From Gemmatimonadota bacterium (lineage in GTDB: Bacteria; Gemmatimonadota; Gemmatimonadetes; Gemmatimonadales; GWC2-71-9), in contig QHTZ01000085.1 in the NCBI GenBank assembly GCA_003221005.1, forward strand, positions 1 through 47,628: a stretch of 47,628 nt of DNA, written 5' to 3'. Shown piece by piece: positions 13,242-43,658 of the stretch. Numbering within the stretch: the first letter of the stretch is position 1; each line of letters begins with the position of its first letter. The translations under genes were made by a program, and so were the position numbers. Under the pieces are notes generated by a model that was given only the letters and a program-made list of their open reading frames with translations, was not told the DNA's origin and made no database searches.

Positions 13242-14449
13242 GCGCTCCCAATGTAGCGGTGGACTACCTGTCCGGCGACGACGGTGAGAAGGGCGTCGGA
13301 CGGTCGGACGGTCGGACGGTCGGACAGAAGCCCGACAAACACGGCGAGATCGGCCTGCTTGCCGACCTCGATCGATCCAATTGCCGACTCCAGCCCCAGC
13401 ACCCGCGCGCCCTCGAGCGTCAACATGCGCAGCGCGTCTTCGCCAGCGAGGCCAACCGCGAGCGCGTCGCCCCACAGGTTCACGTCCCCCGTGCTGACGA
13501 CGGAGTCGGTGCCGAGGCCGACAGGGATCCCCCCAGCGCGGAAGGCGGCGAAGGGCGCGGCGCCGTGCCCATGGGCACGATTCGAGCGCGGGCAATGGGC
13601 GATGGCTGCGCCGGCGGCCTTCAGGAGAGCGACGTCCTGCTGGCTGACCTGAACGCAGTGGATGCAGAGAGCAGGAGTTCCATGTTGCACGACGCCAAGT
13701 TGCACGAGGTACTGGACGGGTGACAGGCCCAGCGGTTGCACCGCAATCCCACGCGCGCGCAGCGCATCCGCAAACGGCCCTGCGCCGTCGCGCACGAGCG
13801 CGCTCTCCTCCCGCGATTCGGCGACATGCACGGCGAGCGGCAGGCCGCGGCGACGGGCGAACGCCGCGACGGCCCGGTAGAGCGGGGCGCTGACGGTGTA
13901 GGGCGCGTGGGGCGACACGCCGAGGCGCAACCGGTCGGAGGCAAACGGATGGAGCCGCTCGACGGCGGCCTCGAGCTCGGCGAGGCTCGCCTCGCAGCGC
14001 GCCGGGTCGGGGCCAAAGACCTCCTGATAGACGATGCCCCGCCCCCCGAGCGCCTGCAGCACCTCCATCACGGCGCCGGTGCTTCCCGTGTCGGCGACGC
14101 AGGTGACCCCTGCCGCCCAGCAGTCGCGCATGCCCTGCTCCGCAGCGTGCCGGAATTCTGGCAGCCGCGTCCCGTCCTTGAGCTCACGGATGCGGCGGAT
14201 CCACGCGGCAAACTCCGGGGTCGGCACGCGTCCCGCGAGATGGGTGAGCTCGAGATGCGTGTGACAGTTGACGAGCCCGGGGACGAGGACGCCGTCCGGG
14301 AATTCTCGGATCTCCACTCCCGGCGGAGTGGGGACGCGGGCGTGTGGGCCGACGGCTGCGATGCGGCCGTCGCCAGCAATGAGAACGGCGCCGTCCGAAA
14401 TGGGCGGCGCCGTCACCGGATGCACCGAGCCGGCCCGAAGGCGCAGCAT
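13238..14449 (-). CDS. Metal-dependent amidohydrolase (MtaD/aminodeoxyfutalosine deaminase-like)
   Basis: PGLVNCHTHLE, SPHAPYTV, HVAES, HCPRSN, GTDS, GSIEVGKQADL. Confidence 0.88.
   Translation of the reverse strand: MLRLRAGSVHPVTAPPISDGAVLIAGDGRIAAVGPHARVPTPPGVEIREFPDGVLVPGLVNCHTHLELTHLAGRVPTPEFAAWIRRIRELKDGTRLPEFRHAAEQGMRDCWAAGVTCVADTGSTGAVMEVLQALGGRGIVYQEVFGPDPARCEASLAELEAAVERLHPFASDRLRLGVSPHAPYTVSAPLYRAVAAFARRRGLPLAVHVAESREESALVRDGAGPFADALRARGIAVQPLGLSPVQYLVQLGVVQHGTPALCIHCVQVSQQDVALLKAAGAAIAHCPRSNRAHGHGAAPFAAFRAGGIPVGLGTDSVVSTGDVNLWGDALAVGLAGEDALRMLTLEGARVLGLESAIGSIEVGKQADLAVFVGLLSDRPTVRPSDALLTVVAGQVVHRYIGSA
13295..13326. repeat. 4x 8-mer GTCGGACG tandem repeat inside the amidohydrolase
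   Basis: gtcggacg gtcggacg gtcggacg gtcggaca. Confidence 0.9.
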
Positions 14450-14452
14450 GTC

Positions 14453-16612
14453 CTACGGCGTGACGCCGATGCCGAACGGCGTGTGCACCGGGCACACCTG
14501 CGTGGGCTCCGTGCCCGGGTAGAACCAGTCCCAATGGCGGACCTCGAGCGGGCAGTACGGCGACGCCACGTACCCATTTGTCTGGTCCACCTCACGGGTG
14601 ACGAGCGAGTCCGGACGGACCCAGTCCGCCGGTGCCGGGCGCCGGTCGTACACGTCGCGCATGAACGCCGTCCAGGCTGGCGCCGTAATGCGGCCGCCCC
14701 CCGCGTTATGCTCGAGGATGCGTTGCTGGAGGTCGTAGCCGATCCACACCCCGGCCACAAGCTCCGGTGTGTATCCGATGAACCACGCGTCGGTGTAGTC
14801 GTCCGTCGTCCCCGTCTTCCCGGCGGCGGGAAGCGTGAATCCCGCCTTCCACACCGCGCTGTACGCCGTCCCGCGGTGGATCACGTCCTTCATCATGTCC
14901 ACGAGCAGCCACGTGTGCGCCGGATCCATCACGTCCTCACGCCGCACCGGCGGCTGCCACAGGATGTTCCCATGGCTGTCTTCCACGCGGAGGATCCCCA
15001 GCGGGTAGGCGCGCGCGCCCAGCGTGGCGAACGCCGTGTACGCGGAAATCATCTCGAGCGGGATGACGCCGTTCGCGCCGATATGGATCGACGGATAGGG
15101 CCGCAGCGGTGTGGTGATCCCGTAGCGGCGCGCTTCCCCGATCACGGTCTGCTCGCCCAGCTGCATGCCCAGCTTGATCGTGGCGAGGTTGCGCGACAGG
15201 TAGAGCGCTTGCCGCATCGGGATGTGTCCCAGCGTCGTGTCGTCGTCGTCCTTCGGTTGCCAGAGCGTGCTGTCGAGCTGGATCACCGGCGGATTGAGGG
15301 GCGAGTCGTCCAAGATCTCGGTGACCGGGTGGCCGGCGCGCACCGCAGCGGAATACACGAACGGCTTGAAGGTCGAGCCCGGCTGGCGGACTGCCTGCGT
15401 CGCACGGTTGAACTTGGAGTCGTCGAAGTCCCGGCCGCCGACCATGACGCGGATGTAGCCAGTGTTCGCCTCCAACGCGACGATGGCGCCCTGCAGGTAC
15501 GGCGAGTACGGGCCGTGGTCCTCGCCGGAGGCCTTGGCGGACTCGATGTAGTCGTGATAGCTCACGCGGCCCGGCGGCTTCCCGTTCGAGTACACGCCGG
15601 CCTCGATCGCGTCGAGCTGCGCCTGGAGCGATCGCTCCGCAGCCTCCTGCATGTCGAGGTCGAGCGTGCTGTAAATGCGCAGACCGCCCTCGTACAGATC
15701 GCGGCCGAAGCGGGCGTCGAGCTGCTGGCGCAGCCACTCCACGAAGTAGGGCGCGACGTCCCCGTAATTCGTGCGCTTGGTCGTGAGGACCAGCGGGTAG
15801 GCCTTCCACAATTCCGCCTCTTCGGGGGTGATGTACCCCTGGTCGCGCATCAAGCTGAGCACGGCGTTGCGCCGCCGCACGGCGCGGTCCGGGTGGGTGC
15901 GGGGGTTGTAGAAGGCGGGCGCCTTCGGGAGCGCCGCCAGGGTCGCGGCCTCCGCGACGTTCAGTTGGCGCGCTGACTTCCCGAAGTACACCTGCGCCGC
16001 GGCCTCGACCCCGTGCGCTCCGGCGCCGAGATCGATCTGGTTCAAGTACAGCTGCAGAATCGAGTCCTTGGGGAAGCTGTGCTCGATCTCCATCGCCACG
16101 CGGGCTTCCTTCAGCTTGCGCGTGAGCTTCTTCTCCCGCGAGATCTCCTCCGGAAAGATGTTCCGCGCGAGCTGCATGGTGATCGTGGAGAAGCCCTGCG
16201 CCCAACTGAGGGAGAGCACGTCCGCCTTGATCGCACCGAGGATGCGCACGTAGTCGATGCCGTGGTGCGAGTAGAACCGCTTGTCCTCGGTGCCGATGAA
16301 CGCCTGCCGCACGGACGCGGGGATCTCGGAGAGCGCCAGCACGGTGCGCCGCTCGAGGCCGAGCTCCGTTATCAGGCGGCCGTCGGCGGCGTAGACCTTC
16401 GAGGTCTGCTGCGGCCCCGGTCCGCTGACCAGACGCGAGATGGAGGGGCAGCGCTCCGCCGCGCATACACGGGTCCATGAGCCGTAGCCGACGCCGACGA
16501 CGTAGGCGAACGCCAGCGCCGCGGCGCCGAGCAACCGGGCCCGGGTCTTGGGGTCGTGCCACCACGCCTGCGGAGAGAAACGCGGCGCGAGCGGCGCCGG
16601 GATGGAAGCCAT
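14453..16612 (-). CDS. mrcA: Class A penicillin-binding protein 1A (transglycosylase/transpeptidase)
   Basis: EDKRFYSHHGID, GFSTITMQLARN, RKLKE; SxxK (STFK), SRN, KTGT. Confidence 0.93.
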   Translation of the reverse strand: MASIPAPLAPRFSPQAWWHDPKTRARLLGAAALAFAYVVGVGYGSWTRVCAAERCPSISRLVSGPGPQQTSKVYAADGRLITELGLERRTVLALSEIPASVRQAFIGTEDKRFYSHHGIDYVRILGAIKADVLSLSWAQGFSTITMQLARNIFPEEISREKKLTRKLKEARVAMEIEHSFPKDSILQLYLNQIDLGAGAHGVEAAAQVYFGKSARQLNVAEAATLAALPKAPAFYNPRTHPDRAVRRRNAVLSLMRDQGYITPEEAELWKAYPLVLTTKRTNYGDVAPYFVEWLRQQLDARFGRDLYEGGLRIYSTLDLDMQEAAERSLQAQLDAIEAGVYSNGKPPGRVSYHDYIESAKASGEDHGPYSPYLQGAIVALEANTGYIRVMVGGRDFDDSKFNRATQAVRQPGSTFKPFVYSAAVRAGHPVTEILDDSPLNPPVIQLDSTLWQPKDDDDTTLGHIPMRQALYLSRNLATIKLGMQLGEQTVIGEARRYGITTPLRPYPSIHIGANGVIPLEMISAYTAFATLGARAYPLGILRVEDSHGNILWQPPVRREDVMDPAHTWLLVDMMKDVIHRGTAYSAVWKAGFTLPAAGKTGTTDDYTDAWFIGYTPELVAGVWIGYDLQQRILEHNAGGGRITAPAWTAFMRDVYDRRPAPADWVRPDSLVTREVDQTNGYVASPYCPLEVRHWDWFYPGTEPTQVCPVHTPFGIGVTP

Positions 16613-16680
16613 CGGCTTACAACCTAGTCGAGGCGGGGCCCGCTTGCCAGCAGTTCGGGGGCCTCGTACGATTCCGCGCC

Positions 16681-17949
16681 ATGCCGGACGTGTTCACCGA
16701 ACTCGAGTGGCGCGGCTTCGTCCAGCAGGCGACGCCGGAGCTGCGCGCGCATCTCGCGAGCGGCCGCCGGACGGTGTACTGCGGCTTCGATCCGACGGCA
16801 CCCTCGCTGCAGCTCGGCAACCTGATGCCGCTGATGCTGCTGCGGCATCTCCAACTGGCCGGCCACCGGCCGATCGTGTTGATGGGCGGCGGCACTGGGC
16901 TCATCGGCGACCCGAGCGGCAAGCGCGACGAACGGCCGCTCCTCTCGAAAGAGCAGATCCGCGAGAACCTCCACCGCCAGCGCGACCAGATGGGCCGGCT
17001 GCTCGACTTCGACGCGAAGGAGGTCAGGCCCCTCGTGCTCGACAACGCCGACTGGCTCGTGCCGCAGCGGTTGGTGGATTTTCTGCGCGACGTCGGCAAG
17101 CACTTCACCGTGAATCTCATGCTCCAGAAGGAGTCCGTGCAGGGGCGGCTGGACGCGGGGATTTCCTACACCGAGTTCAGCTACATGTTGCTTCAGGCAT
17201 ACGACTTCCTGCATCTGTTCCGCAAGGAGCGCTGCACGGTGCAGGTGGGCGGCAGCGATCAATGGGGCAACATCACGGCCGGCATCGACCTGATCCGGCG
17301 TGTGGAGGGCGGCGAGGCGCACGGCCTAGTCGCGCCACTCGTCACGACGGCATCGGGTGCGAAGTTCGGCAAGAGCGAGGCCGGTGCGCTGTGGCTCGAC
17401 CCTGAGATGACGTCGCCGTACAAGTTCTACCAGTATTGGATCAACGTCGACGACCGTGATCTCGAAGGCTACCTGAAGCTGTTCACGTTCATGCCTAAGG
17501 ACGGGCCCCAGGGAATCGCAAGCCTCCTAAAGAACCATGCGAAGGACCCCGGTCGCCGCGAAGCGCAATCCGTTTTGGCTCGAGACATCACGACTCTGGT
17601 TCACGGCAAGGACGCGGCACACAACGCCACTAGCGTCAGCGCCATCCTCTTCGGCGAGTTCGACCCCCGCGCCGTGAAGGAAGGCGTGTATGACGCCATG
17701 GCGCGGGAGATTCCCACGGCGACGGTGTCGGGCAACGCCATTCCGCTCGTGGATGCTCTGGTGCAGGCAGGATTGGTCAAGTCGAAGAGCGAGGCCCGCC
17801 GACAGATCGAGCAGGGCGGGATCTACGTGAACCAGCAGCGGGAGGACCGCGTCGACCGCGAGCTCGAGTCCCGTGACTGGCTCGCGGGCCGGAACATGCT
17901 GCTGCGCAAGGGCAAGAAGGACTACGCGCTGCTGCGCCTCGGCAGCTAA
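16681..17949 (+). CDS. tyrS: Tyrosine--tRNA ligase
   Basis: YCGFDPTA, QAYDF, GGSDQWGNI, KFGKS, C-terminal S4 domain. Confidence 0.97.
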   Translation: MPDVFTELEWRGFVQQATPELRAHLASGRRTVYCGFDPTAPSLQLGNLMPLMLLRHLQLAGHRPIVLMGGGTGLIGDPSGKRDERPLLSKEQIRENLHRQRDQMGRLLDFDAKEVRPLVLDNADWLVPQRLVDFLRDVGKHFTVNLMLQKESVQGRLDAGISYTEFSYMLLQAYDFLHLFRKERCTVQVGGSDQWGNITAGIDLIRRVEGGEAHGLVAPLVTTASGAKFGKSEAGALWLDPEMTSPYKFYQYWINVDDRDLEGYLKLFTFMPKDGPQGIASLLKNHAKDPGRREAQSVLARDITTLVHGKDAAHNATSVSAILFGEFDPRAVKEGVYDAMAREIPTATVSGNAIPLVDALVQAGLVKSKSEARRQIEQGGIYVNQQREDRVDRELESRDWLAGRNMLLRKGKKDYALLRLGS

Positions 17950-17959
17950 GGAGGTTCGC

Positions 17960-18640
17960 ATGTTCATCGGCCACTACGCCCTCGGCTTCGCCGCCAAGCG
18001 CGTCGCGCCCGGGACATCGCTCGGCACCCTGTTCGTCGCGCCCACGCTCGCGGACCTCCTCTGGCCCGTCTTCTTGTTGCTGGGGTGGGAACGGGTGACC
18101 CTCACGCCGGCGACCGACCCGTTCCTGAACCTCACGTTCGACTCGTACCCCATCTCGCACAGCCTGCTCACCCTGATCGCGTGGGGCGTCCTGTTCGCGC
18201 TGCTCTACTTCATGCGGACCCGCTACCGCGCGGGCGCGATCGCGATCGCCCTGCTCGTGGTGAGCCACTGGGTGTTGGACTACATCACTCACCGCCCGGA
18301 CATGCCGCTCGCTCCCGGCGGGCCCAAGGTCGGCCTGGGACTGTGGAACTCAGTGGCGGGAACTGTCGCCGTCGAGGCGGTGATGTTCGTCGCCGGCATC
18401 GCGGTGTACGCGGCGGGCACGCGGGCTCGGGACCGGGTCGGGCGGTACGGCCTGTTGGGTCTCGTGGCCGTCCTGGCGCTGTCCTACGTGGGTTCGCTGT
18501 TCAGCCCGCCACCTCCGAGCGTGCCGGCGCTCGCCATCGGCGGGATCGTCTTCGGATGGTTGTTCGTGGTGTGGGCGTGGTGGGTGGATGGGCATCGGGA
18601 TGCGACGTTGCCGGTCACGCTTCACCCTCACTCTACCTGA
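17960..18640 (+). CDS. Inner-membrane metal-dependent hydrolase (YdjM-like)
   Basis: MFIGH, D-L-L, SHSL, SHWVLD.ITHRPD; AAGGAGG SD. Confidence 0.85.
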   Translation: MFIGHYALGFAAKRVAPGTSLGTLFVAPTLADLLWPVFLLLGWERVTLTPATDPFLNLTFDSYPISHSLLTLIAWGVLFALLYFMRTRYRAGAIAIALLVVSHWVLDYITHRPDMPLAPGGPKVGLGLWNSVAGTVAVEAVMFVAGIAVYAAGTRARDRVGRYGLLGLVAVLALSYVGSLFSPPPPSVPALAIGGIVFGWLFVVWAWWVDGHRDATLPVTLHPHST

Positions 18641-19815
18641 TCCAGCACGTCCAGCACCCGCTCAATCTCCTCGACCGTGTTGTAGCAGTGTGGCGCCAGG
18701 CGGATCGCGCCCTCGCGCAGGGAGCAAATGATGTGGGCGCGTTTGATCGCATGGAACGCCTCGACGGCGCGCTCGGGGGCGATGCACACGATGGCCGAGC
18801 GGTGCGCCTCTTCGCGCGCCGAGACGACCCGCACGCCGTTCGAGTCCGCCCACTGCCACACCGCCTCGTGCAGCGCGCGCGTGTGCTCGCTGATGTCGCG
18901 CACGCCGAGCTCGCACAGCATCCCCACGGACGCGGTCATGCCGTAGAAGTCCTGGTAAGGGAGCGTCACCATTTCGAAGCGGCGGGCATCGGAGCGGAAG
19001 GTGGGGTTGTACTCGGTGAGGCGGGAGAAGTCGTCGGTGCCCTCGAACGCCATCCATCCCGCCGCGGCGGGCTCCAGCACCCGCACGAGCTCCCGCCGCA
19101 CGTACATGAATCCCGAGCCCCAGGGCGAGAGCAGCCACTTCTGCCCGCCGCACGCGAGGATGTCCACCGGTGTCTCGCGCACGTCGAGCACGGAATTCCC
19201 CACGCCTTGGATGCCGTCCACCACGAGGAAGGTGCCGTTGGCGCGGCACGCGGCGCCGAGGCGCGCGAGGTCGGCGCGGTAGCCGTTGGAGAACTGGACG
19301 AACGAGACCGCTAGCACGCGGACGCGCGGGTCCTCGAGGCGCTCGATCAGGTAGTCCTCGTCAGGCCAGCCTTCCGCCGCGCAGGGGGCGAGCTCCACGT
19401 CGATCCCCTGCTTCTTGAGGAGCAGCCACGGATACACGTTGGCCGGAAACTCGCGGTCCGAGACGAGCACCACGTCGCCGCGCTGGAGCGGCAGCGCCCG
19501 CGCCGCCACGTTGAGCCCGAAGCTCGTATTGGTGGTGAGGGCGATCTCGCCGGTCTCGGCGTTGATGAGGCGCGCGACCGCCTCGCGCGCTGCCTGTAAT
19601 CCGCCCAGCAATTCGCGGTCCGGGAGCAGGTGGGGGGCCGTGCGCTTCGCGGTGAATTCGTCCAGGGCGCGACGCGTCCGCTCCGGGATCGGCCCGATGG
19701 AGGCGTTGTTCAGGTAGACCGTGTCCGCGGTCCAGGGGAACTCCGTGGCGCGGAGGGCGCGGAAGCTGTCGCGCAGGGCGCGGAGTCGTGTCGGGTGGTA
19801 GGCGATATCGGTCAC
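18628..19815 (-). CDS. Class V PLP-dependent aminotransferase (cysteine desulfurase/selenocysteine lyase-like)
   Basis: YLNNASIGP, EFPANVYPW, VDGIQG, GGQKWLLSP (PLP lysine). Confidence 0.88.
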   Translation of the reverse strand: MTDIAYHPTRLRALRDSFRALRATEFPWTADTVYLNNASIGPIPERTRRALDEFTAKRTAPHLLPDRELLGGLQAAREAVARLINAETGEIALTTNTSFGLNVAARALPLQRGDVVLVSDREFPANVYPWLLLKKQGIDVELAPCAAEGWPDEDYLIERLEDPRVRVLAVSFVQFSNGYRADLARLGAACRANGTFLVVDGIQGVGNSVLDVRETPVDILACGGQKWLLSPWGSGFMYVRRELVRVLEPAAAGWMAFEGTDDFSRLTEYNPTFRSDARRFEMVTLPYQDFYGMTASVGMLCELGVRDISEHTRALHEAVWQWADSNGVRVVSAREEAHRSAIVCIAPERAVEAFHAIKRAHIICSLREGAIRLAPHCYNTVEEIERVLDVLDQVE

Positions 19816-19886
19816 GAGTGGCGCAGGTCAGGGGGCCACGACTACGTTACTCGGAGGCTCACCCTGCGGGCAAGCGGCACAACCAC

Positions 19887-23064: not shown

Positions 23065-23071
23065 CGCCGGC

Positions 23072-31773: not shown

Positions 31774-32147
31774 CGGGGGCGACCACGGCGAGCGAGGTGC
31801 GGCTCATCGCCCTCATCGCCGAGGCCGCCCGCGGCCCCGAGCGCGACGGCCTGTTCGCGCTCTGGCTCGTGCTGCGCGCGGCCGAAGGCCTGCTCCCACC
31901 CACGCCGGTTTCCAGCCGCAACCACCGCCGCCGCCTCCAGGCGCTGCAGAGCCGCCTCGCGACGCTGGCGCTGCCGGCGCCGCTCCAGCGCGCGCTCGCC
32001 GCCGCCGGAGCGCACCTCGAGCCTGCGACGCCTGCGGCTGCGGCGCTGGTGCTGTCCCAGCTTGTGGCGCCCGCCCGGGAGGTGCTGGGGCCGGAAGCGG
32101 GCGAGGCTGTCGCCGTTGCGGCGCGGTCGGCCCGCATACATTTATAG
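31770..32147 (+). CDS. Hypothetical helical protein (125 aa)
   Basis: ATGA overlap with the waaF stop; high-GC3 codon usage; fills the gap to the dnaB-like gene. Confidence 0.7.
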   Translation: MTGATTASEVRLIALIAEAARGPERDGLFALWLVLRAAEGLLPPTPVSSRNHRRRLQALQSRLATLALPAPLQRALAAAGAHLEPATPAAAALVLSQLVAPAREVLGPEAGEAVAVAARSARIHL

Positions 32148-32182
32148 TCCTGTGACCACCCGTATAGTCCTGTGACCACCCG
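32143..32182 (+). repeat. Perfect 20-bp tandem duplication TATAGTCCTGTGACCACCCG x2
   Basis: Read directly: 32143-32162 equals 32163-32182. Confidence 0.95.
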
Positions 32183-34305: not shown

Positions 34306-34306
34306 C

Positions 34307-34792
34307 GTGAGGGTGCTGGGGGTCGACCCGGGCACGTCGGTCACCGGATATGGGGTGGTCGACGTCGGCGACGGGAATGGAGCCCCTCCCCTGCCTGGGC
34401 GACTCGTCGAATGCGGCACCATTACCCTCGCGTCCCGCGCCCCGCTCGCCCGGCGCCTGCAGCAGTTGCATGAGGGCATCGCCGACCTCATCCTTCGCCA
34501 CCGCCCCACTACGCTCGCGCTGGAAGACGCCTTCCTTCAGAAGAACGTCCGCACCACGCTCGTCCTCGGGCACGCCAGGGGCGTGGTCCTGCTCGCCGCC
34601 CAGCAGGCGGGGCTGAACATCTTTCATTACCCGCCCGCGACGATCAAGAAGACCGTGGCCGGCGCCGGAGCCGCGCGTAAGGCGCAGGTCGCGATGATGG
34701 TTGCCCGGCTGTTGCGTCTGGCGCACCCTCCGCGACCGGCGGACGCGGCCGACGGTGTGGCGGTCGCCCTGACGCACATCCTCCGCGCGTGA
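34307..34792 (+). CDS. ruvC: Holliday junction resolvase
   Basis: LGVDPG, E, LGHARGV, IKK, DAADGVAVALTH. Confidence 0.95.
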   Translation: MRVLGVDPGTSVTGYGVVDVGDGNGAPPLPGRLVECGTITLASRAPLARRLQQLHEGIADLILRHRPTTLALEDAFLQKNVRTTLVLGHARGVVLLAAQQAGLNIFHYPPATIKKTVAGAGAARKAQVAMMVARLLRLAHPPRPADAADGVAVALTHILRA

Positions 34793-35412: not shown

Positions 35413-35414
35413 GC

Positions 35415-35579
35415 ATGGCGCAGACCGCGGAATGGATCTGCACGCGCTGCGGCTCGACCAACCGCCGCCTCGTGGCGGACGGCGCGACGCGGGCCGACGA
35501 CGCGTGCGTCACCTGCCACGCCCACCATGTGCTCGAGGCCGACGCCCGCCCGGTGCGGTGGCGCGCGCGCCCAGCATGA
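35415..35579 (+). CDS. Small Zn-ribbon-like protein (54 aa), absent from ORF track
   Basis: Translated by hand: [54 protein letters not shown]; starts 2 nt after the ruvA stop. Confidence 0.75.
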
Positions 35580-35610
35580 GCGAGCACGCTCGCGCCGCCG
35601 CGCGCCCGGT

Positions 35611-36654
35611 ATGACCCGCGGCCGACCCCAGATCACGACCCCCGAGGCGTTGCCGGACGAGCGCTCCGCCGAGACCGCGCTGCGCCCCTCGCGGCTGGAC
35701 GAGTTCGTCGGCCAGGCTAAGGTCAAAGAGTCGCTCCAGATCGCGATCGACGCGGCGAAGCACCGCAAAGAGCCGCTCGACCACGCGCTGTTCTTCGGGC
35801 CCCCCGGCCTCGGCAAGACGACGCTCGCGCTCCTGATGGCGAAGGAGCTGGGCGTCGGCATCCGCACCACCTCGGGACCGGTGCTCGAGCGCCCCGGAGA
35901 TCTCGTCGGCATGCTCACGTCCCTTCGCGCCGGCGACATCCTCTTCATCGACGAGGTACACCGGCTGCGGCCCGCGCTCGAAGAGTTCCTGTATCCCGCG
36001 ATGGAGGAGTTTCGGGTGGACGTGCGCGTGGCGGACGGGGGCGGCGCCCGCGCGCAGACGATTCCGATGGCGCTCGAGCGCTTCACGCTGATCGGCGCGA
36101 CCACCCGCTTTGGCCTGCTCACGCCGCCGATGCGCGCGCGCTTCGGGCTGATCGAGCGGCTCCATTACTACCCGCCCGACGACATCGCCCAGATCCTGAC
36201 TCGCTCGGCCCGCATCCTCGGGGTGCCGACCGATCCGGCGGGCACCACCGAGATCGCGCGCCGCAGCAGAGGCACGCCGCGCGTGGCGAACCGGCTGCTG
36301 AAGCGCGTGCGCGACTACGCGCAGGTGCGCGCCGACGGCAAGATCACCGCTGCCGTCGCCGCCGAGGCGCTGAAGCGGCTCGACGTGGACGAGTTTGGGC
36401 TCGACGACATGGATGCGCGCATCCTCAAGGCGATCATCGAGCAGTTCGAGGGCGGCCCCGTGGGTGTGGCGACCGTGGCCGCCGCCGTCGGCGAAGATCC
36501 CGGGACGCTCGAGGAGGTGTACGAGCCGTTCCTGATGCAGCAGGGCTTCCTCGCCCGCACGCCGCGCGGCCGCTGCGCCACGGCGAGCGCGTACAGGCAC
36601 TTTGGATTTCCACCGCCCAAGAGCGCAGAGCAGCCGTCGATCTTCGAGAGTTAA
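35611..36654 (+). CDS. ruvB: Holliday junction DNA helicase
   Basis: LRP...[42 protein letters not shown]. Confidence 0.97.
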
Positions 36655-36767
36655 TGCGGAATGCGGAATTCGGAATGCGGAATTGATGGGCCAGGTTCGA
36701 AGCGCGTCACAACCGTTCGGCGCTCTTCCTGACATTCCGCATTCCGCACTCCGCTTTCCGCATTCTC
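36653..36767. repeat. Inverted heptamer arrays (AATGCGG)x4 ... (CATTCCG)x4-5
   Basis: 36653-36680 and 36733-36767 are mutually complementary, with a ~50-nt spacer. Confidence 0.92.
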
Positions 36768-36769
36768 TC

Positions 36770-37816
36770 ATGCGCGCCTCCGATTTCGACTACCAACTCC
36801 CCCCGGAGCTCATCGCTCAACACCCCCTCGCCGACCGCGCAGCGAGCCGGCTGCTGATCCTCGATCGCGCCACCGGGGCGATCCGGCATGCGCGGTTTCC
36901 GGACCTCGTGGACCTGGTCGCCCCCGCAGACGTGCTCGTCGTGAACGTGTCGCGGGTGATTCCGGCGAGACTCCACGGGAGGCGGGAAACGAGAAGCGGG
37001 AAACGTGTTGGCACGGCGGCAGCCGAGCTGTTGCTGGTGCGGGAGCTTTCCGACGGAACGTGGCTCGCGATGGGGCATCCCGGTGGCAAGTTGAAGGCCG
37101 GGCGTCGGGTCACGTTCGGCGACAACAGCGTTGTGGAGGTTGTGGAGGTGTTGGGGGGCGGTCTGCGCCGCGTGCGCTTCGTCGGCGCGCTGGACGCGGC
37201 CGCCGTGCTGGCGAAGCACGGTGAAGTCCCGCTGCCACCTTACATCCGCCGCGCGCCGCGGCCGGAGGATCGCGAGCGCTACCAGACGGTGTACGCCGAG
37301 CACGACGGCAGCGTGGCCGCGCCGACGGCGGGATTGCATTTCACGGATGAGCTGCTGGCGCGCGTCGAGCGGCGGGGGACGGCGCTCGCGAAGCTCGACC
37401 TGCACATCGGCCCCGGGACCTTCAAGCCGGTCGAGGTCGAGAATCTCGCCGCGCACCCGATGCATGCCGAGCATTACGCCGTCGGTCCCGAAGCGGCCGC
37501 CGCGGTCAACAGGAGGCGGGAAACGGGAGGGCGGGTCTGGGCGGTGGGGACGACGGTCGTGCGGACGCTCGAGACCGTGTCTGCAGCCGACGGGACGGTC
37601 CGGCCGGACGCGGGGGACACGAGCTTATTCATCTATCCTCCGTACACCTTCCGGGCGGTGGACAGGTTGGTCACCAACTTCCACCTTCCCCGCTCGACGC
37701 TGCTGATGCTGGTATGCGCCTTCGGAGGCTACGAGCACGTGATGCGGGCCTACCGGGAGGCGATTGAGCGTGGATATCGGTTTTACTCGTACGGCGATGC
37801 GATGGCGATCATCTAA
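36770..37816 (+). CDS. queA: S-adenosylmethionine:tRNA ribosyltransferase-isomerase
   Basis: DFDYQLP.ELIAQ, PLPPYI, YQTVYA, AAPTAGLHF, TNFHLPRSTL, FYSYGDAM. Confidence 0.97.
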   Translation: MRASDFDYQLPPELIAQHPLADRAASRLLILDRATGAIRHARFPDLVDLVAPADVLVVNVSRVIPARLHGRRETRSGKRVGTAAAELLLVRELSDGTWLAMGHPGGKLKAGRRVTFGDNSVVEVVEVLGGGLRRVRFVGALDAAAVLAKHGEVPLPPYIRRAPRPEDRERYQTVYAEHDGSVAAPTAGLHFTDELLARVERRGTALAKLDLHIGPGTFKPVEVENLAAHPMHAEHYAVGPEAAAAVNRRRETGGRVWAVGTTVVRTLETVSAADGTVRPDAGDTSLFIYPPYTFRAVDRLVTNFHLPRSTLLMLVCAFGGYEHVMRAYREAIERGYRFYSYGDAMAII

Positions 37817-39022
37817 ATGGCACCCGTGTTCGAATTCGTTATCGAAGCCACCTCTGGCTCCGCCCGCGCCGGGCGGCTGACCCTGCCCCATGGCAGCGTC
37901 GAGACGCCGGCCTTCATGCCGGTCGGCACCCAGGGCACCGTGCGCGCGCTCTCGCCCCAGGACCTGCGTGCGGTGGGCGCGGAGCTCGTGCTCGCGAACA
38001 CCTATCACTTGCACATCCGGCCCGGCGAGACTGTGGTGGCGAAGCTCGGCGGGCTGCACCGCTTCATGGGGTGGGATCGCCCGCTGCTCACCGATTCCGG
38101 CGGCTTCCAGGTCTTCTCGCTCGAAGGGTTCCGGCGCGTGAGCGAGGACGGCGTGGAGTTTCAGAGTCACGTGGACGGCAGCCGTCACACTCTCACCCCC
38201 GAGCGCGCGGTCGAAGTCCAGTGGACGCTGGGCGCCGACGTCGCGATGGCGTTCGATCACGTGGTGCCTGGGGGAGCGGACGTCGCCACCGCCAGGGACG
38301 CCCTCGAACGCACGTTGCGATGGTTGGAGCGGTGCGCCGGCAAGCACGCAGAGCTGAAGGCGTCACACGACGCCACGACGCCACGCTCCACGGACCCACT
38401 CGGCGACAACGTGCAACGTGGCGACGTGGCGTCGTGCAACCAGACTCTCTGGCCCATCCTTCAGGGCGGCGCACACCTCGAGCTCCGCACCGAAGGCGTG
38501 CGGCGTATCCTGGAGCTCGGCCCCTGGACCGGTCTCGCCATCGGCGGCTTGTCGGTCGGGGAGCCGAAGGCGGTGATGTTCGGAGTTTTGGATGCGCTCG
38601 CGCCGGCGCTGCCGCCGGCATTGCCGCGTTATCTTATGGGCGTCGGGTTCCCCGGCGATCTGGTGGCGGCCGTGGAACGCGGGATGGATCTGTTCGACTG
38701 CGTCGCACCCACCCGCAACGGGCGCAATGGGTCAGCGTTCACGCCGGACGGCGCGGTGAACATCCGCAACGCCGAGTACCGGGAGGACCCGCGGCCGCTC
38801 GACGCGACGTGCGACTGCGAGACGTGCACCACGTTCTCGCGCGGCTACCTCCGCCATCTCTTCGTAGCTGAGGAGCTGCTGGGGCTGCGGTTGTTGTCGC
38901 TGCACAACGTGCGTTTCCTGATCCGGCTCGCCGCCGAGATGCGCGCGGCCATCCGGGCGGGAGACTTCCAGCGGTGGGTGGCCGAGTGGCGCCACCGCTA
39001 CACTCGAACGGGATCCGCCTGA
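37817..39022 (+). CDS. tgt: tRNA-guanine transglycosylase
   Basis: FMPVGT, NTYHL, TDSGGFQ, GGLSVGE, YLMGVG, FDC..PTR, CDC..C, HN. Confidence 0.97.
   Translation: MAPVFEFVIEATSGSARAGRLTLPHGSVETPAFMPVGTQGTVRALSPQDLRAVGAELVLANTYHLHIRPGETVVAKLGGLHRFMGWDRPLLTDSGGFQVFSLEGFRRVSEDGVEFQSHVDGSRHTLTPERAVEVQWTLGADVAMAFDHVVPGGADVATARDALERTLRWLERCAGKHAELKASHDATTPRSTDPLGDNVQRGDVASCNQTLWPILQGGAHLELRTEGVRRILELGPWTGLAIGGLSVGEPKAVMFGVLDALAPALPPALPRYLMGVGFPGDLVAAVERGMDLFDCVAPTRNGRNGSAFTPDGAVNIRNAEYREDPRPLDATCDCETCTTFSRGYLRHLFVAEELLGLRLLSLHNVRFLIRLAAEMRAAIRAGDFQRWVAEWRHRYTRTGSA
38366..38436. repeat. In-frame inverted repeat of 8-mer CACGACGC units inside tgt
   Basis: 38366-38385 pairs with 38417-38436 (19/20), 31-nt loop. 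Confidence 0.88.
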
Positions 39023-39024
39023 TC

Positions 39025-39360
39025 ATGCACCCTGCGCTCACATTGCTGTTCGCTCCCGCCGGCCAGACCGGCGGCGGAGGCATCGCCGTCTTCGTGCTCC
39101 AGATCGGGGCCTTCGTCGCGATCTTCTACTTCCTGCTCATTCGCCCGCAGCGCAAGCAGCAGGCCGAGCACCGCCAGCTGCTCGCATCCCTCCAGAAAGG
39201 GGATCACGTGGTGACGTCGGGCGGTATCATCGGCGAGGTGATTCATCTGAAGGAAAACGAGGTGACGATCAAGTCAGGCGAGTCGCGGCTCGTGGTGATG
39301 CGCACCAACGTCGCGAACATCCTCAAGCGGCCCGCGGCCGCCGAGGCGAAGCAGGCGTGA
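39025..39360 (+). CDS. yajC: Preprotein translocase subunit
   Basis: FYFLLIRPQRK, L.KGD.VVTSGGIIG. Confidence 0.95.
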   Translation: MHPALTLLFAPAGQTGGGGIAVFVLQIGAFVAIFYFLLIRPQRKQQAEHRQLLASLQKGDHVVTSGGIIGEVIHLKENEVTIKSGESRLVVMRTNVANILKRPAAAEAKQA

Positions 39361-39905
39361 CGGTCCGGCAGCTCCACCTGCTCGGCTCGCCCGTCCTTCG
39401 CAAGCGGGCTCAGGCCGTTCCGCAGGTGGACGACGCGGTCCGCCGGCTCGTGGACGACCTCTTCGAGACGATGCGCGCGGCGAAGGGCGTCGGGCTTGCC
39501 GCACCGCAGGTCGGCGTGTCGCAGCGGGTGGCCGTCGTGGATGTCGGCGAGGAGTTCCCGCCGCCGCTCGTGCTGATCAATCCCCGCATCGTCGAAGCGA
39601 GCGGCGAGCCCGAAGTCGCCGAGGAAGGCTGCCTCTCTATCCCCGAGATCTTCGGTGAGGTGGACCGCTCCCCGAGCGTCGCGCTCGAGGCCCTGGACCG
39701 GGAGGGCAAGCCGTACCGCGTCGTCGTCACGGGCTTCAAGGCACGCGCGGTGCAGCACGAGATCGATCACCTCGACGGCATCCTGTTCCTCGACCGGCTG
39801 AGCGCCGTGAAGCGCGGCCTGCTGCTCGCCAAGTGGAAGAAACTCCGCAAGGGAACGACCGGCTATCTGAAGGAGGTGACGCCGCAGCCGGCGGGCGAAC
39901 TCTAG
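39357..39905 (+). CDS. def: Peptide deformylase
   Basis: GVGLAAPQVG, EGCLS, QHEIDHLDG. Confidence 0.97.
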   Translation: MTVRQLHLLGSPVLRKRAQAVPQVDDAVRRLVDDLFETMRAAKGVGLAAPQVGVSQRVAVVDVGEEFPPPLVLINPRIVEASGEPEVAEEGCLSIPEIFGEVDRSPSVALEALDREGKPYRVVVTGFKARAVQHEIDHLDGILFLDRLSAVKRGLLLAKWKKLRKGTTGYLKEVTPQPAGEL

Positions 39906-40829
39906 ATGCGGGTCGTCTTCTTCGGCACCCCCGAATTCGCAGTCCCGTCACTCGAAGCCCTGCTGGGCGAGGGGTTCGACGTGCTGGCGGCGGTGACACA
40001 GCCCGACCGCCCGCGGGGACGGTCTCGCTCGACGCCACAGCCCCCGCCGGTGAAGGTCGCCGCGGAAGAGGAAGACGTACCCGTGCTGCAACCGGAGCGG
40101 CCGACCGACCCGACATTCGTCGCGCGCCTGCGCGCGCTGGCGCCCGACATCGGGGTCGTGGTGGCATACGGCCACATCCTGAAGCCGGACTTGCTCGCGA
40201 TCCCGAGGCAGGGCATGGTGAACGTACACCCTTCCCTGCTCCCCGAGCTGCGCGGCGCGGCGCCGATCGCGTGGGCGATCATCAACGGACTCGAGAAGAC
40301 CGGTGTTACCATCATGCAGCTCGACGCCGGCATGGACTCAGGCCCCATCCTGCATCAAATCCCGGAGGACCTGCCGGCCGACATCACCGGTGGCGAGCTG
40401 TCGCTGCATCTCGCCGAAGTCGGCGCCGAGGCGCTGGTTGAGGCCCTGGCCCGGCTGGCGCAGGGAGCTATCCAGCCGCGGCCGCAGGACCACGCCCGTG
40501 CCACGTACGCGCCCAAAGTCACGCGCGAGACGGCACGCATCGACTGGACCGCGCCAGCGGAGCGCGTCGCCCGGCTGATCCGCGGTCTCGATCCCAAGCC
40601 GGGCGCGTGGACCGAGCTCGAGGGCAGATCGGTGAAGCTGTTCGGAGCGGCGGCTACGGAGGGACACGGCGCTCCCGGCGAAGTGCTGCGCGCCGACGGG
40701 ACACTCGTGCTCGCCACGGGGGAGGGCGCCGTGACGGTCGAAGACGTCCAGCCCGAGGGCAAGGAGCGGATGCCCAGCGCGGACTGGGTGCGCGGGCGTG
40801 GCGTGCAGACCGGCCGCCGGTTTCGGTGA
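39906..40829 (+). CDS. fmt: Methionyl-tRNA formyltransferase
   Basis: FFGTPEFA, TQPDRP, NVHPSLLP.LRGAAPI, DAGMDSG. Confidence 0.97.
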   Translation: MRVVFFGTPEFAVPSLEALLGEGFDVLAAVTQPDRPRGRSRSTPQPPPVKVAAEEEDVPVLQPERPTDPTFVARLRALAPDIGVVVAYGHILKPDLLAIPRQGMVNVHPSLLPELRGAAPIAWAIINGLEKTGVTIMQLDAGMDSGPILHQIPEDLPADITGGELSLHLAEVGAEALVEALARLAQGAIQPRPQDHARATYAPKVTRETARIDWTAPAERVARLIRGLDPKPGAWTELEGRSVKLFGAAATEGHGAPGEVLRADGTLVLATGEGAVTVEDVQPEGKERMPSADWVRGRGVQTGRRFR

Positions 40830-41440
40830 GGCCGCCGCTCCCCTGCCTGCACGCGGTCACCGACGAACGGATCGCCCGCCGGCCGGACCTCAGCGCCGTC
40901 GCCGCAGAGCTCGCGGCCGGCGGCGGGGCGGCCATCGCATTCCACGCCCGGGGACGCGGCCTCTCGGGGCTAGAGCATTATGAGTTAGCCGTCCGATTGA
41001 CGGACCGTCCGACCGTCCAGCTGTTCGTGAACGACCGCCTCGACATCGCGCTCGCGTGCGGCGCCACTGGCGTCCAGCTCGGCGCGGGGAGTGTCGATCC
41101 TGGGGACGCCCGCCGACTCGAGCCCCGGTGGTGGATCGGCCGTTCGGTTCATGACCTGGCAGAGGCGACGGCCGCGCGGAACGCGGGGGCCGACTATCTT
41201 TTACTGGGACCCGTGTTCCGGACGGCGACCCATCCCGGACGGGAGCCGCTCGATCCCGGGACGGTTTCCGCGGTGGTGGCGCTCGGGCTGCCGGTCATCG
41301 CGATTGGCGGAGTGACGCCTGGACGCGCGATGGAGCTGAAGGCGGCCGGAGTCCACGGAGTGGCGGCGATCCGGGCGCTGTGGGACGCGGACGATCCCGC
41401 ACGAGCCGCCCGCCGCTTGTTGCAGGAGTTGGACGCATGA
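40826..41440 (+). CDS. thiE: Thiamine-phosphate synthase/TenI family
   Basis: VNDRLDIA, GRSVH, ADY...GPVF.TATHP, AIGG; GTGA overlap with fmt. Confidence 0.85.
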   Translation: MRPPLPCLHAVTDERIARRPDLSAVAAELAAGGGAAIAFHARGRGLSGLEHYELAVRLTDRPTVQLFVNDRLDIALACGATGVQLGAGSVDPGDARRLEPRWWIGRSVHDLAEATAARNAGADYLLLGPVFRTATHPGREPLDPGTVSAVVALGLPVIAIGGVTPGRAMELKAAGVHGVAAIRALWDADDPARAARRLLQELDA

Positions 41441-41581
41441 ATGCAACGGTCAGCGTAGTCGTGAACGGCGAGCCCCGAGCCGGAGCACAATCGCCGGATC
41501 GTGCGCCGGCCCGCGCTCGGGGACGTGCGCGTGGCGCCCGGTGACGCGATCGAGCTCGTGCACTTCGTGGGAGGCGGCTGA
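41437..41581 (+). pseudogene. thiS: Sulfur carrier ThiS with internal deletion/frameshift
   Basis: MNATVSVVVNGEPRA in one frame; EHNRRIVRR...GDAIELVHFVGGG* in the +1 frame from 41483; only about 47 codons remain. Confidence 0.85.
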
Positions 41582-41584
41582 GCG

Positions 41585-42382
41585 ATGGCGACGGCGGTGG
41601 AAGTGGTGAAGGATACGCCGTTCAGGATCAGCGGCCGGACGTTCCGGTCCCGCCTGATGGTGGGCACGGGGAAGTATCGCGACAACCCGACGATGGTGCA
41701 CGCCATCGAGGCCTCCGGCGCGGAGATCGTCACGGTCGCCGTGCGGCGAGTGAGCCTCGACCGTACGAAGGAAGAGGGCGTCCTCTATCATCTCGATGCG
41801 ACGCGGTTGTTCCTGCTCGCCAACACCGCCGGCTGCTACACCGCGGAGGATGCCATTCGGTACGCGCGGCTCGCGCGCGAGGCAGGATTCAACGACTTCG
41901 TGAAGCTCGAGGTGATCGGAGACCAGGAGACCCTGCTGCCAGACACGCAGGGATTGCTCCAGGCCGCCCGCACGCTGGTGAAGGATGGCTTCAAGGTGCT
42001 CGCGTACACGAACGAAGATCTGGTTACGGCGCTGCGGCTCGAAGACGCCGGTGTCGCCGCCGTGATGCCTCTCGCCTCGCCCATCGGCAGCGGGTTGGGG
42101 CTGCTCAATCCGTACAGCGTCCGCCTCATCAAGCGCCGGCTTCAGGTCCCCGTGGTGGTGGATGCAGGCGTCGGGACGGCGTCCGACGCCTGCATCACGA
42201 TGGAACAGGGCGTCGACGGCATCCTCATGAACACCGCGCTCGCCGCCGCGCAGGAGCCCGTGGCCATGGCTCACGCAATGCGTCTCGCCGTTGAGGCGGG
42301 GCGCGCCGCGTTCCTCGCGGGCCGCATGCCGCGCCGCGAGATCGCGATGCCGTCCTCCCCGCTCGGGGGGATGCTGGATTAA
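41585..42382 (+). CDS. thiG: Thiazole synthase
   Basis: SRLMVGTGKY, NTAGC, KLEV, MPLASPIGSG, VDAGVG. Confidence 0.97.
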   Translation: MATAVEVVKDTPFRISGRTFRSRLMVGTGKYRDNPTMVHAIEASGAEIVTVAVRRVSLDRTKEEGVLYHLDATRLFLLANTAGCYTAEDAIRYARLAREAGFNDFVKLEVIGDQETLLPDTQGLLQAARTLVKDGFKVLAYTNEDLVTALRLEDAGVAAVMPLASPIGSGLGLLNPYSVRLIKRRLQVPVVVDAGVGTASDACITMEQGVDGILMNTALAAAQEPVAMAHAMRLAVEAGRAAFLAGRMPRREIAMPSSPLGGMLD

Positions 42383-43658
42383 GGAAGTCACCGCCGCGCG
42401 GCGCGCGGCGCTCGAGATCCTCAAACAGGTGGATGCCGGCGCCACCTTCGCGGTGGCGCGCGACCGCCAGCTCGGCGCCCTGGCGGCGCGCGACCGCCGG
42501 CTCGCCTACGAGCTCGCGGCCGGCGTGCTGCGCCGGCGCGCCGAGCTCGACCGGCTGCTGCCTGTTGCGAGTGTCGATCCCCGCCTGCGCGACATCCTGC
42601 GGCTCGGTGCCTACCAGCTGCGCCGTCTCACCCGCGTGCCGGCCTACGCGGCCGTCACCACGAGTGTCGCGCTCGCCCGCGAGGTCGGAGGGGAGCGTGC
42701 GGCGGGGTACGTCAACCGGCTGTTGCGCGACATGGCCCGGGATGCGAGAAGCGAGATGCGGGATGCGAGGGGCTCGCATCCCGAGTGGCTGGCGCAGCGG
42801 TGGCGAACGCGCTTTGGGCCCGACGAAGCGGCGCGTCTCATGGCACGGAACGACGTGCGGCCTGCGCTGACCCTGCAACCGGCACGCTGGGACGCCGGCA
42901 CGTTGCGCGAGCACCTCCGCGCAGCCGGATTCGGGGTAGAAGAAGCGCCGTACGGAGCGGGATTGAGAGTGATCACCGGACCCAACGCATCCCGCATCCC
43001 GCATCCCGCGCAGGTTCCGGGGTTCACCGAAGGTGGGTTTATCGTGCAGGACTCCTCCGCCGCCCTCGTCTGCCGCTTCGCCGGAGCGCCCGCGGGGGCG
43101 CTCGTGTACGACGCGTGCGCGGCCCCGGGAGGCAAGGCCGTGGCACTCGAGCGGCTGGGGGCGCGGGTGGTGGCGGGGGACGCGCGCCGCGACCGCGTCG
43201 GGACGCTCGCCGCGACCGCGCGACGCGCCGGAGTGGCGGTCCGCGTGATCGTCGCCGATCTTGTGACCGCGCCGCTGCCGGCGGGCCTGCCGGACGTCGT
43301 GCTGCTCGACGCGCCCTGCACCGCCACCGGGACGATGGCGCGCCACCCTGATGCGCGTTGGCGCCTGTCGTCGCGCCGGCTGGCCCGCGCCGCGGCGCGG
43401 CAGCGCGAGCTGCTCGACCATGCCGCGGCGCTGGTGCGGCCGGGAGGCTGGCTGGTGTACGCCACCTGTTCACTCGAACCGGAGGAGAACGTCGCTCAAG
43501 TGACAGCTTTGCTGGAGCGCCGGCGGGACTTCCGGCGCGACCCGCCGCACGCGACGGTGCCGGACGAGCTGGTGACGGACGCGGGGGACTTCGAGTCGCT
43601 CCCGCACCGTCATGGGATCGACGGCGCGTACGCGGCGCGGCTCCGGAGGGCGGGCTGA
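42378..43658 (+). CDS. rsmB: 16S rRNA m5C967 methyltransferase (start uncertain)
   Basis: NusB-like N-terminus, SHPEWL, VQD, CAAPGGK, DAPCTATG, YATCSLEPEEN. Confidence 0.88.
   Translation: MKEVTAARRAALEILKQVDAGATFAVARDRQLGALAARDRRLAYELAAGVLRRRAELDRLLPVASVDPRLRDILRLGAYQLRRLTRVPAYAAVTTSVALAREVGGERAAGYVNRLLRDMARDARSEMRDARGSHPEWLAQRWRTRFGPDEAARLMARNDVRPALTLQPARWDAGTLREHLRAAGFGVEEAPYGAGLRVITGPNASRIPHPAQVPGFTEGGFIVQDSSAALVCRFAGAPAGALVYDACAAPGGKAVALERLGARVVAGDARRDRVGTLAATARRAGVAVRVIVADLVTAPLPAGLPDVVLLDAPCTATGTMARHPDARWRLSSRRLARAAARQRELLDHAAALVRPGGWLVYATCSLEPEENVAQVTALLERRRDFRRDPPHATVPDELVTDAGDFESLPHRHGIDGAYAARLRRAG
42738..43008. repeat. Heptamer arrays (CGRGAWG)x4-5 at 42738-42772 and complementary (CGCATCC)x3 at 42986-43006 inside rsmB
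   Basis: Read directly; the two arrays are reverse complements, about 215 bp apart. Confidence 0.85.

Follow-up and report, generated by a model that had tools for sequence, protein, structure and literature searches.

Tandem heptamer and octamer arrays in housekeeping genes of a Gemmatimonadota genome: probable gene-less copies within a palindromic family that carries a four-helix-bundle gene in its full form

The contig QHTZ01000085.1 of the Gemmatimonadota assembly GCA_003221005.1 (47,628 nt, positions 1 to 47,628 of the forward strand; hereafter the window) carries short tandem arrays of 7- and 8-nt units inside and between housekeeping genes, some of them followed by an inverted partner array. 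Here it is proposed, with moderate confidence, that these arrays are gene-less members, either hairpin "minis" or single-arm "solos", of a genome-wide palindromic family whose full form carries a gene of the PF05635/TIGR02436 four-helix-bundle type. A complete element would comprise about four tandem 7-10-nt units as its 5' arm (usually the G-rich strand), an interior and an inverted 3' arm. In the full-size form the interior would be the four-helix-bundle gene itself (the "S23p" or "IVP" gene, Avd-like), a build as in those intervening sequences (IVS) of 23S rRNA that bear an open reading frame (ORF).

The window is one of the 141 contigs (C141) of a Gemmatimonadales-like metagenome-assembled genome from soil (MAG; G000, the own genome below) of 2.79 Mb, 94% complete and of about 70% G+C, throughout which arrays of the same anatomy recur, as had been supposed in a sequence-only reading of the window that grouped its arrays into one family of shared design. 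Arrays were called with Tandem Repeats Finder (TRF), which at a score of at least 40 gives 140 arrays of period 7 and 78 of period 8 (the set of 218 referred to below), plus many of period 14 or 16. About four units are present in 141 of the 218, and the median length is 30 nt. Among the 64 pairs of neighbouring arrays no more than 500 nt apart, 49 are inverted, one is direct and 14 have other arrangements, with spacers of 2-372 nt; the G-rich arm comes first in 45 of the inverted pairs and the C-rich arm in three, including the tgt element of the window, one pair being neutral. The recurring unit families include GGGGACG, AATGCGG, GGGGGAA, CGGGAAA, GATGCGG, AAGGACGG, AGACGTC and AACGCGG, many of which differ by a single substitution, and an 18-nt motif of the AATGCGG family has 44 matches in the genome against none for its reversed control.

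The arms of these elements are not interchangeable. Within the G-rich arm, the off-consensus unit AATTCGG recurs as the second or third unit, in the window (36653-36683) and at no fewer than six other loci, and it is absent from the partner arm, which gives the elements a left and a right side. Four loci have clearly co-directional genes, and in all four the arm bearing this unit is on the sense strand, these contexts being few and ambiguous. Copies of the GGGGACG family have in common an innermost GAGTG...CACTC unit. Of the 37 spacers of at least 18 nt, 35 occur once only in the genome; just two cross-matches were seen, both weak, and no spacer matches the cognate cassette.

Such arrays are more frequent than chance would give. 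At least three perfect copies of a unit occur 30 times for period 7 and 12 times for period 8 in the own genome, compared with zero for both periods in three Markov-5 simulations, and the counts for periods 4 and 5 match the expectation under the same model. When the codons of seven window genes were shuffled, a loose rule gave a mean of 1.5 arrays against the nine observed, a number reached in none of 500 shuffles, and a strict rule gave 0.019 against the two observed, reached in none of 1000. Enrichment over a codon-shuffled background was one of the points on which the sequence-only reading had staked its claim, and the arrays have it.

The association with a gene family holds within the genome, across the phylum and in other phyla, in agreement with the remark in the sequence-only reading that similar heptamer arrays flank four-helix-bundle cassettes related to the 23S rRNA IVP. 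That reading also stated that no such gene is present, which is true of the window and false of the genome, where there are six genes of PF05635/TIGR02436, none of them in the window. All six stand between tandem arrays inverted to each other, with periods of 7, 8, 10 or 14/16 and, at one gene, just two units per side. The homologues closest to these genes are all in Gemmatimonadales or Gemmatimonadota MAGs. When the best locus was taken from each of the relatives (29 loci), an inverted match of at least 20/24 was found across the gene in 24, and TRF arrays were present on both sides in 20, each with its own unit. A survey of other Gemmatimonadota, covering the one PF05635 subfamily reached by a narrow alignment, gave 77 loci, 64 of which are flanked by inverted arrays (period 8-10 or multiples), compared with 0 of 1000 random windows of the own genome; with the rule limited to periods 7 and 8, 19 of the 77 loci are flanked, compared with 1 of 1500. 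Flank arrays sharing a 7-mer amount to 20% of the protein pairs below 35% identity and to 79% at 65% identity or above, a sequence trend which shows that gene and arrays are inherited together, and which on its own is no proof of recognition.

Among the unit families of the own genome, GGGGACG, AACGCGG and AATGTCC have a matching gene cassette. None of the cassettes was found inside 23S rRNA, the gene of which is assembled for its last 122 nt only; one lies 8 nt after 5S rRNA, and the others are between protein genes. The contig with this rRNA-linked cassette (C39; L035 1-1722) carries the end of 23S, the 5S gene (182-298) and then the cassette flanked by CCAATGT arrays, with a further array pair at 1510-1584. 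No Rfam family covers the elements at the gathering threshold, the sole hits being 5S and the 23S end on that contig. The four-helix-bundle proteins are basic (median pI 9.4, n = 113), the best PDB match of an own-genome protein is 2GSC (XCC0516), and the match to the NCBIfam model DivGenRetAVD is weak, at 25 bits for a cut-off of 80.

Array density follows the gene among relatives. With 39-200 kb sampled from each of 13 relatives (n = 14 including the own genome), the count of PF05635 genes correlates with the density of period-7/8 arrays at a Spearman coefficient of 0.62 (nominal p 0.019), a value that overstates independence because the sampled genomes are related to each other, and which fits the factor acting in trans that the sequence-only reading had suggested. 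The seven relatives with the gene have 61 arrays in 824 kb, and the six in which none was found have 7 arrays in 738 kb, two or more of these being GC-only; five of these six are near zero, among them the congener G004 with 0 arrays in 184 kb. The units are specific to each genome and match the flanks of the resident gene: in G022 the single gene is flanked by GCGGGGAA, and this unit is used by all seven sampled arrays and by the array in the tgt loop, and in G029, which also has a single gene, the one array found matches the gene-flank unit. The two genomes richest in the gene, G013 (L229, L230) and G021 (L231-L235), reach densities of 12-26 arrays per 100 kb in samples taken from contigs bearing the gene. 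Their arrays reach 8-24 units, such as GTGAACC x24 and GAGACGA x15, and the four-unit rule is therefore not universal.

Similar loci were found on plasmids. A plasmid protein search gave matches mostly in cyanobacteria, plus Gemmatirosa and Azospirillum, and at about seven of the eight plasmid loci fetched, inverted 7/8-mer arrays stand on both sides of a gene named "four helix bundle" or "S23 ribosomal". At three plasmid loci, in Anabaena sp. 90, Picosynechococcus PCC 7003 and Pseudanabaena galeata (L290, L293, L296), the gene lies among cas genes, where cas6 and cas4, or else cas10 and cmr3, enclose it together with its arrays, and the Pseudanabaena arrays reach 14-16 units. The presence of 23S_rRNA_IVP genes in cas loci had already been noted in a metagenomic survey (PMC3936711).

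Within the window, Pfam agrees with the names given to the amidohydrolase, RuvB, QueA, Tgt, Fmt, ThiE and RsmB genes. The sequence-only reading pointed to seven gene contexts, of which five have real arrays, and two, a second place in queA near 37510 and thiE, are weak and bring no change of length. The filled and empty orthologous sites which the same reading expected were seen at the ruvB-queA junction, tgt, queA and the amidohydrolase; arrays are thus gained or lost at fixed sites. Three of the examples come from G020, an unpublished genome: an empty ruvB-queA junction, a filled queA site and an array in the tgt loop.

The ruvB-queA hairpin element, on the forward strand like the queA, tgt, thiE and rsmB features below, is intergenic and takes up all the DNA that separates the ruvB stop (36654) from the queA ATG (36770). 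Its G-rich 5' arm (36653..36683) has AATGCGG x4.4 and includes the variant unit AATTCGG; the ruvB stop TAA (36652-36654) is completed by the two A's that open the array. A unique spacer follows (36684..36732), which is partly self-complementary in the RNA fold, and then the C-rich inverted 3' arm (36733..36765; CATTCCG x4.7), which ends 4 nt before the queA ATG. The inverted pair measures 36 nt with 86% complementarity and a 49-nt spacer, and the RNA fold has -60.1 kcal/mol (z -8.15). In the 14 relatives where the two genes are adjacent, the junction has 2-32 nt in ten and 988 nt in one, and it is filled in three, G002 (AATGCGG), G009 (ATTGCGG) and G006 (AACGCGG), in which both arms change together.

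Inside queA, a degenerate solo heptamer array (36983..37005; CGGGAAA CGAGAAG CGGGAAA CG) is in frame and adds about seven residues. Extra residues at this site are present only in G020 and G006, with the same unit family, and in G001, with GGGGACG, and the other 16 of 19 relatives are without them. The weak G-rich period-14 stretch further along the gene (37508..37535; TRF 1.9 copies, score 42) was rejected as an insertion, the length there being equal in all 19 relatives.

The octamer hairpin of tgt (Pfam TGT) has the C-rich arm first, with CACGACGC units in the left arm (38366..38392) and ACGTGGCG units in the inverted right arm (38410..38436). These 27-nt arms, 89% complementary and 17 nt apart (fold z -4.12), are in frame and add about 21 residues to the shortest form of the loop. 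That short form is found in 11 of 29 relatives; seven have tandem 7/8-mers of other units (G002, G003, G020, G022, G013, G038 and G024), and the rest have longer loops with no clear arrays. The hairpin of G002 is homologous to that of the window, and three of its 24 pairs are changed on both sides, with none broken. The congener G004 was discarded as an empty reference for this loop and is not scorable, as its tgt is split between contig ends (C21:1-505 and C61:20520-21002; L306, L307), one of which stops about 10 codons before the variable loop; a hairpin at this place could be the cause of the contig break.

The two arrays of rsmB are inverted to each other, 216 nt apart and in frame. Linker 1 (42738..42783; residues ~149-164) reads CGGGATG CGAGAAG CGAGATG CGGGATG followed by one complementary unit, which TRF gives as GATGCGA x4.1 at 42741-42769, and linker 2 (42986..43009; residues ~232-240) has CGCATCC x3.4, inverted to the array of linker 1. 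By the Pfam coordinates (NusB end at residue 150, ferredoxin-like domain start at 163), these are the two linkers flanking the RsmF-B ferredoxin-like domain. Only G017 of eight relatives has arrays in this gene, at the same two linkers, with CGGGAAG x4 and CTTCCCG where the window has CGGGATG and CGCATCC, so that both arms differ at the same unit position.

The solo octamer array of the amidohydrolase (13295..13325, minus strand) was called by TRF with period 8 as GTCGGACG x3.9 with 100% matches, corresponding to GTCCGACC x4 on the coding strand. It is in frame in a C-terminal loop of the ORF at 13238-14449 (minus strand; Pfam Amidohydro_1/3), and no inverted partner was found near it. In this loop G002, G001 and G003 have arrays of other units or periods, and G004 and G015 are shorter, with no array. 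The thiE feature is a weak two-unit octamer (41003..41018; GACCGTCC x2, 2.0 copies) with a fold no better than that of shuffles (z 0.08). It was dismissed as an insertion, since there is no length difference from the closest relatives; it is possibly a decayed array, G009 having about 3.5 octamers at the same place.

Two other repeats of the window were recorded. A perfect 20-mer tandem duplication (TATAGTCCTGTGACCACCCG x2) at 32143-32182, where ORFs end (32155) and start (32172), has no sequence relation to the heptamer family, and a perfect 15-mer (CAAGCCGGCTCCTCC, x2.2) at 46527-46559, its unit a multiple of 3, is probably an ordinary in-frame coding repeat.

Contigs from soil metagenome runs carry the same arrays. 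One contig of run X7 (record 27; 38308-38774) covers the entire tgt hairpin with one difference, and contigs of X3 and X7 cover both rsmB arrays with zero differences; the tgt and rsmB arrays, found unchanged in other soil runs, are therefore not assembly artefacts. Over the AATGCGG hairpin the summed contig depth is about 10-100 times that of the neighbouring bins (36474-36947 and 42636-42872; X1, X3, X7 and X20), and many contigs join both arms through other short interiors; elements with the same arms are therefore plentiful in these soils, whether at other loci or in other organisms. Apparent joints at the arrays were considered as excision products and set aside, as their sides extend for just 20-30 nt with other letters in between, which assigns them to other loci with the same arms.

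The frames of the genes stay open, as the sequence-only reading had remarked, despite units of 7 or 8 nt, and the coding arrays are in surface loops and inter-domain linkers. With a frame test based on G+C at third codon positions (GC3), 180 of 392 arrays (46%) are in coding frames, compared with 1062 of 1499 random windows, and 212 are not coding; arrays are depleted in genes, yet far from excluded from them. Eleven of 51 inverted pairs lie entirely within one ORF. In the E2 acyltransferase (C52, L308 862-1162), inverted GGGACGG and CCCGTCC arrays occupy two linkers around the E3_binding domain, the same layout as in RsmB. Among 120 coding arrays, 41 have an orthologue-like match across the site in the sampled DNA of the relatives, and clean extra residues were seen at several of them, such as C44:14819 (7 residues, 21 nt) and C31:19658 (9 residues), with the length unaltered at others. 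The peptides encoded by coding arrays include stretches such as GRGKGDGGR or PSPVPRPPS.

Several observations weigh against the membership of the window arrays in a gene-bearing palindromic family. The AATGCGG, GATGCGG, AAACGGG, AAGGACGG and AGACGTC units are abundant and have no matching cassette in the 94%-complete assembly. Gene and array counts do not always agree: G014, with no gene found at 97% completeness, nonetheless has three arrays in 39 kb, and G031, with eight genes, has one doubtful array in 100 kb. Linkers can be replaced with no change of length (rsmB linker 1; C93:29657), and a pair standing on either side of a native domain cannot be one contiguous insertion. Inspection by eye of nine AATGCGG-family copies showed no evident target-site duplication, and no empty allele was seen in the four soil metagenome runs (X1, X3, X7, X20) over 36000-43100. 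The unrelated spacers between the same arms mean that recent copy-and-paste of entire elements is not seen, and whole-element copying was set aside on this ground.

A spreading enzyme is also missing from the candidates. The own genome, at its 94% completeness, has no match to the reverse transcriptase PF00078, and a reverse transcriptase was rejected as the repeat writer on this basis; the repeat-writing system imagined in the sequence-only reading was not borne out, no candidate enzyme having been found. Two Y1_Tnp genes (IS200/RAYT-like; RAYT, REP-associated tyrosine transposase) are present at C27:17898-18239 and C66:6398-6736 (L143, L144), flanked on both sides by identical long GC-rich palindromes of the repetitive extragenic palindromic (REP) type and not by heptamers. 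They form a second, separate repeat system of this genome, and a RAYT was discarded as the mobiliser because the flanks of these genes differ from the heptamer arrays. To our knowledge, the four-helix-bundle protein has no catalytic activity.

Other explanations were weighed on the same evidence. The arrays could be a by-product of ordinary mutation, to which we give a small but real probability, where slippage expands proto-repeats, template switching at quasi-palindromes makes or corrects the inverted arm, and the gene is only a frequent passenger of the hairpin loop, no dedicated system being involved. In its favour, relatives without the queA insertion (G003, G016) already read GGGAAGCGGGA at that place, some linker arrays come with no change of length, the arms co-vary as hairpin-templated correction predicts, and no enzyme candidate was found. 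However, slippage predicts broad copy numbers and the observed mode at four units is sharp (141/218), the genome-specific unit families match the gene flanks (7/7 in G022), and arrays are nearly absent from five of the six genomes with no gene found, including the congener; furthermore, AATTCGG recurs in one arm at several loci, where hairpin correction would erase it. That the repeats are nucleic-acid structures under selection (G-quadruplexes, terminators, RNase III stems), tuning the neighbouring genes as proposed for the GGGAATC arrays of Xanthomonas, is an account that can coexist with the gene-bearing family and which we hold to be quite unlikely as the explanation of the whole. The ruvB-queA element begins in the ruvB stop codon and folds strongly, the pairing of the tgt hairpin is kept between G000 and G002, the Xanthomonas arrays have a four-unit preference, lie within 50 bp of stop codons and form G-quadruplexes (G4) in vitro (PMC4692102), and the heptamer-bearing stem of a 23S IVS is cut by RNase III (PMC4990558). 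Nevertheless, only 99 of the 218 arrays have a run of at least three G or C in their units and the other 119 likewise peak at four, so that the G-tracts of canonical G-quadruplexes are not a property of the family; about 46% of the arrays are in coding frames, where harm, not benefit, would be expected of a stable stem or an RNase III site, and sites are filled or empty among close relatives with no visible tie to gene function.

A template-directed polymerase, telomerase-like or of the kind found in diversity-generating retroelements (DGR) with an Avd-like accessory protein, might write the repeats at DNA ends or nicks. The G-rich-then-C-rich polarity (45 against 3) is as expected from the extension of both 3' ends at a break, the interiors are unique, and PF05635 proteins resemble Avd (PMC10053308), with the weak model match given above; such writing is nonetheless improbable, given the lack of PF00078 in the own genome, arms that are not mirror images (AATTCGG in one arm only) and arrays which also bracket native domains and entire genes. 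Protein-level selection for flexible linkers rich in Gly/Arg/Asp or in Pro, already disfavoured, is barely credible: the coding arrays do stand in linkers and loops and encode stretches like the two quoted above, but a period of 7 or 8 nt is not a multiple of 3 and the peptide does not repeat, arrays are equally common outside genes (212/392 not coding), and they are found on either strand, with inverted partners, flanking a specific gene family.

Under the preferred explanation, a palindromic family with a four-helix-bundle gene in its full form, the elements would spread as DNA, and the survivors would be intergenic copies or copies that keep the frame in tolerant loops, as in the palindromic elements of Rickettsia. 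Copying from a master, or else correction templated by the hairpin, may keep the arms alike. The basic four-helix-bundle pentamer may recognise the tandem units, with about one unit per subunit, and thereby promote spread or maintenance; the four-unit mode, just as sharp among units incapable of forming G4s, is easier to reconcile with a protein ruler or a fixed template than with slippage or selection for G4s. In a wider and tentative form of this proposal, PF05635/TIGR02436 pentamers might be the sequence-specific factor of an unrecognised class of selfish elements with tandem 7-10-mer ends, each pentamer reading about one unit per subunit and driving arm copying or homogenisation through the replication or repair enzymes of the host.

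If this were true, one system would account for the ORF-bearing 23S IVS, the short tandemly repeated repetitive (STRR) heptamers of cyanobacteria, the GGGAATC repeats of Xanthomonas, the "orphan" four-helix-bundle genes in cas operons and the in-frame hairpins of housekeeping genes. The locus and its genome tie together the over-representation of heptamers, the function of the S23p/IVP/four-helix-bundle proteins and the origin of the 23S IVS, none of which has an accepted explanation, and they raise the directly testable idea that the protein binds its own flanking units. The in-frame arrays also offer a natural system for the tolerance of essential proteins to insertions of 7-45 residues in loops and linkers. 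In practical terms, short-read assemblies are broken at the hairpins, which can also mislead gene calling and alignment in Gemmatimonadota.

The sequence-only reading had put its arrays forward as the best candidate for an undescribed system in the window; the arrays themselves are in print. Rehm et al. (2015; PMC4692102) reported 186 and 183 GGGAATC arrays in two xanthomonads, in which four units are preferred, with 70-75 convergent inverted pairs per genome, 7-11% of intragenic arrays and frequent positions right after stop codons, and read them as G-quadruplex formers; the same paper covers the Nostoc heptamer GGGGAYT and cites the STRR heptamers of heterocystous cyanobacteria (Calothrix). 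Dispersed head-to-tail units of 7 (or 8) nt, about four units per array and convergent inverted pairs are all found here. Unlike in those genomes, many unit families are present per genome in Gemmatimonadota, more than half of the units are unable to form canonical G4s, and the share in coding frames is about 46%, against the 7-11% above. Supplement file 2 of that paper lists a GGGAATC array of four units that overlaps the XCC0516 start, and the main text of the paper contains no occurrence of "helix bundle" or "S23".

Heptamers are likewise in print beside the S23p ORF of the Coxiella 23S IVS, which has a 28-bp terminal stem, variable tandem heptamers and cleavage by RNase III (PMC4990558); that paper, which cites Ralph and McClelland (1993) on such elements, relates the suspicion that these intervening sequences are selfish or mobile, and describes Xcc0516 as a homopentamer of four-helix bundles. 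The terminal inverted repeats, the PF05635-type ORF in the loop and the adjacent tandem heptamers correspond to the cassettes of Gemmatimonadota. As a difference, the latter are not in 23S rRNA (helix 25 or 45), and gene-less derivatives inside protein-coding genes are not among the forms described in the IVS source.

Rickettsia palindromic elements (RPE) are about 150 bp long, with a conserved internal sequence and an encoded peptide (PMC10969869). They work in a similar way, as short palindromes, in frame in unrelated housekeeping genes, compatible with the fold and present or absent among relatives, and in-frame palindromes of this type are found here at tolerant sites of tgt, queA, rsmB, the amidohydrolase and E2, a likeness drawn from the way of working and not from homology. 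In contrast to RPE, tandem-unit arms alone are common here and the interiors are unique. The same review, devoted to MITEs (transposable elements of the miniature inverted-repeat type), has no occurrence of "heptam". Of the features that define MITEs, the terminal inverted repeats are present, and a common internal sequence from an autonomous element and a cognate transposase are absent, the sole gene inside the full element being that of the four-helix-bundle protein.

REP sequences and their hairpin form, REPINs, are inverted doublets with conserved arms and variable loops; the cognate RAYT gene is flanked by the repeats, and the families are genome-specific. The elements described here are alike in having hairpin doublets with variable loops, a gene flanked by its own repeats and genome-specific families, and differ in that the inner gene encodes a four-helix bundle, not a Y1 (HUH) transposase, and that the arms are tandem arrays, not single palindromes. 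With the DGR accessory protein Avd they share the fold family and a basic protein, with a match to the Avd model below its cut-off, and unlike a DGR the own genome has no PF00078 reverse transcriptase. Beyond the Coxiella IVS and the Xanthomonas supplement row, a search that subscription journals lay outside found no publication connecting heptamer arrays with this gene family. Heptamer arrays are therefore already known, and what appears to be unpublished is their link to the four-helix-bundle gene and the dispersal, across the genome and inside its genes, of gene-less arrays built from the same units.

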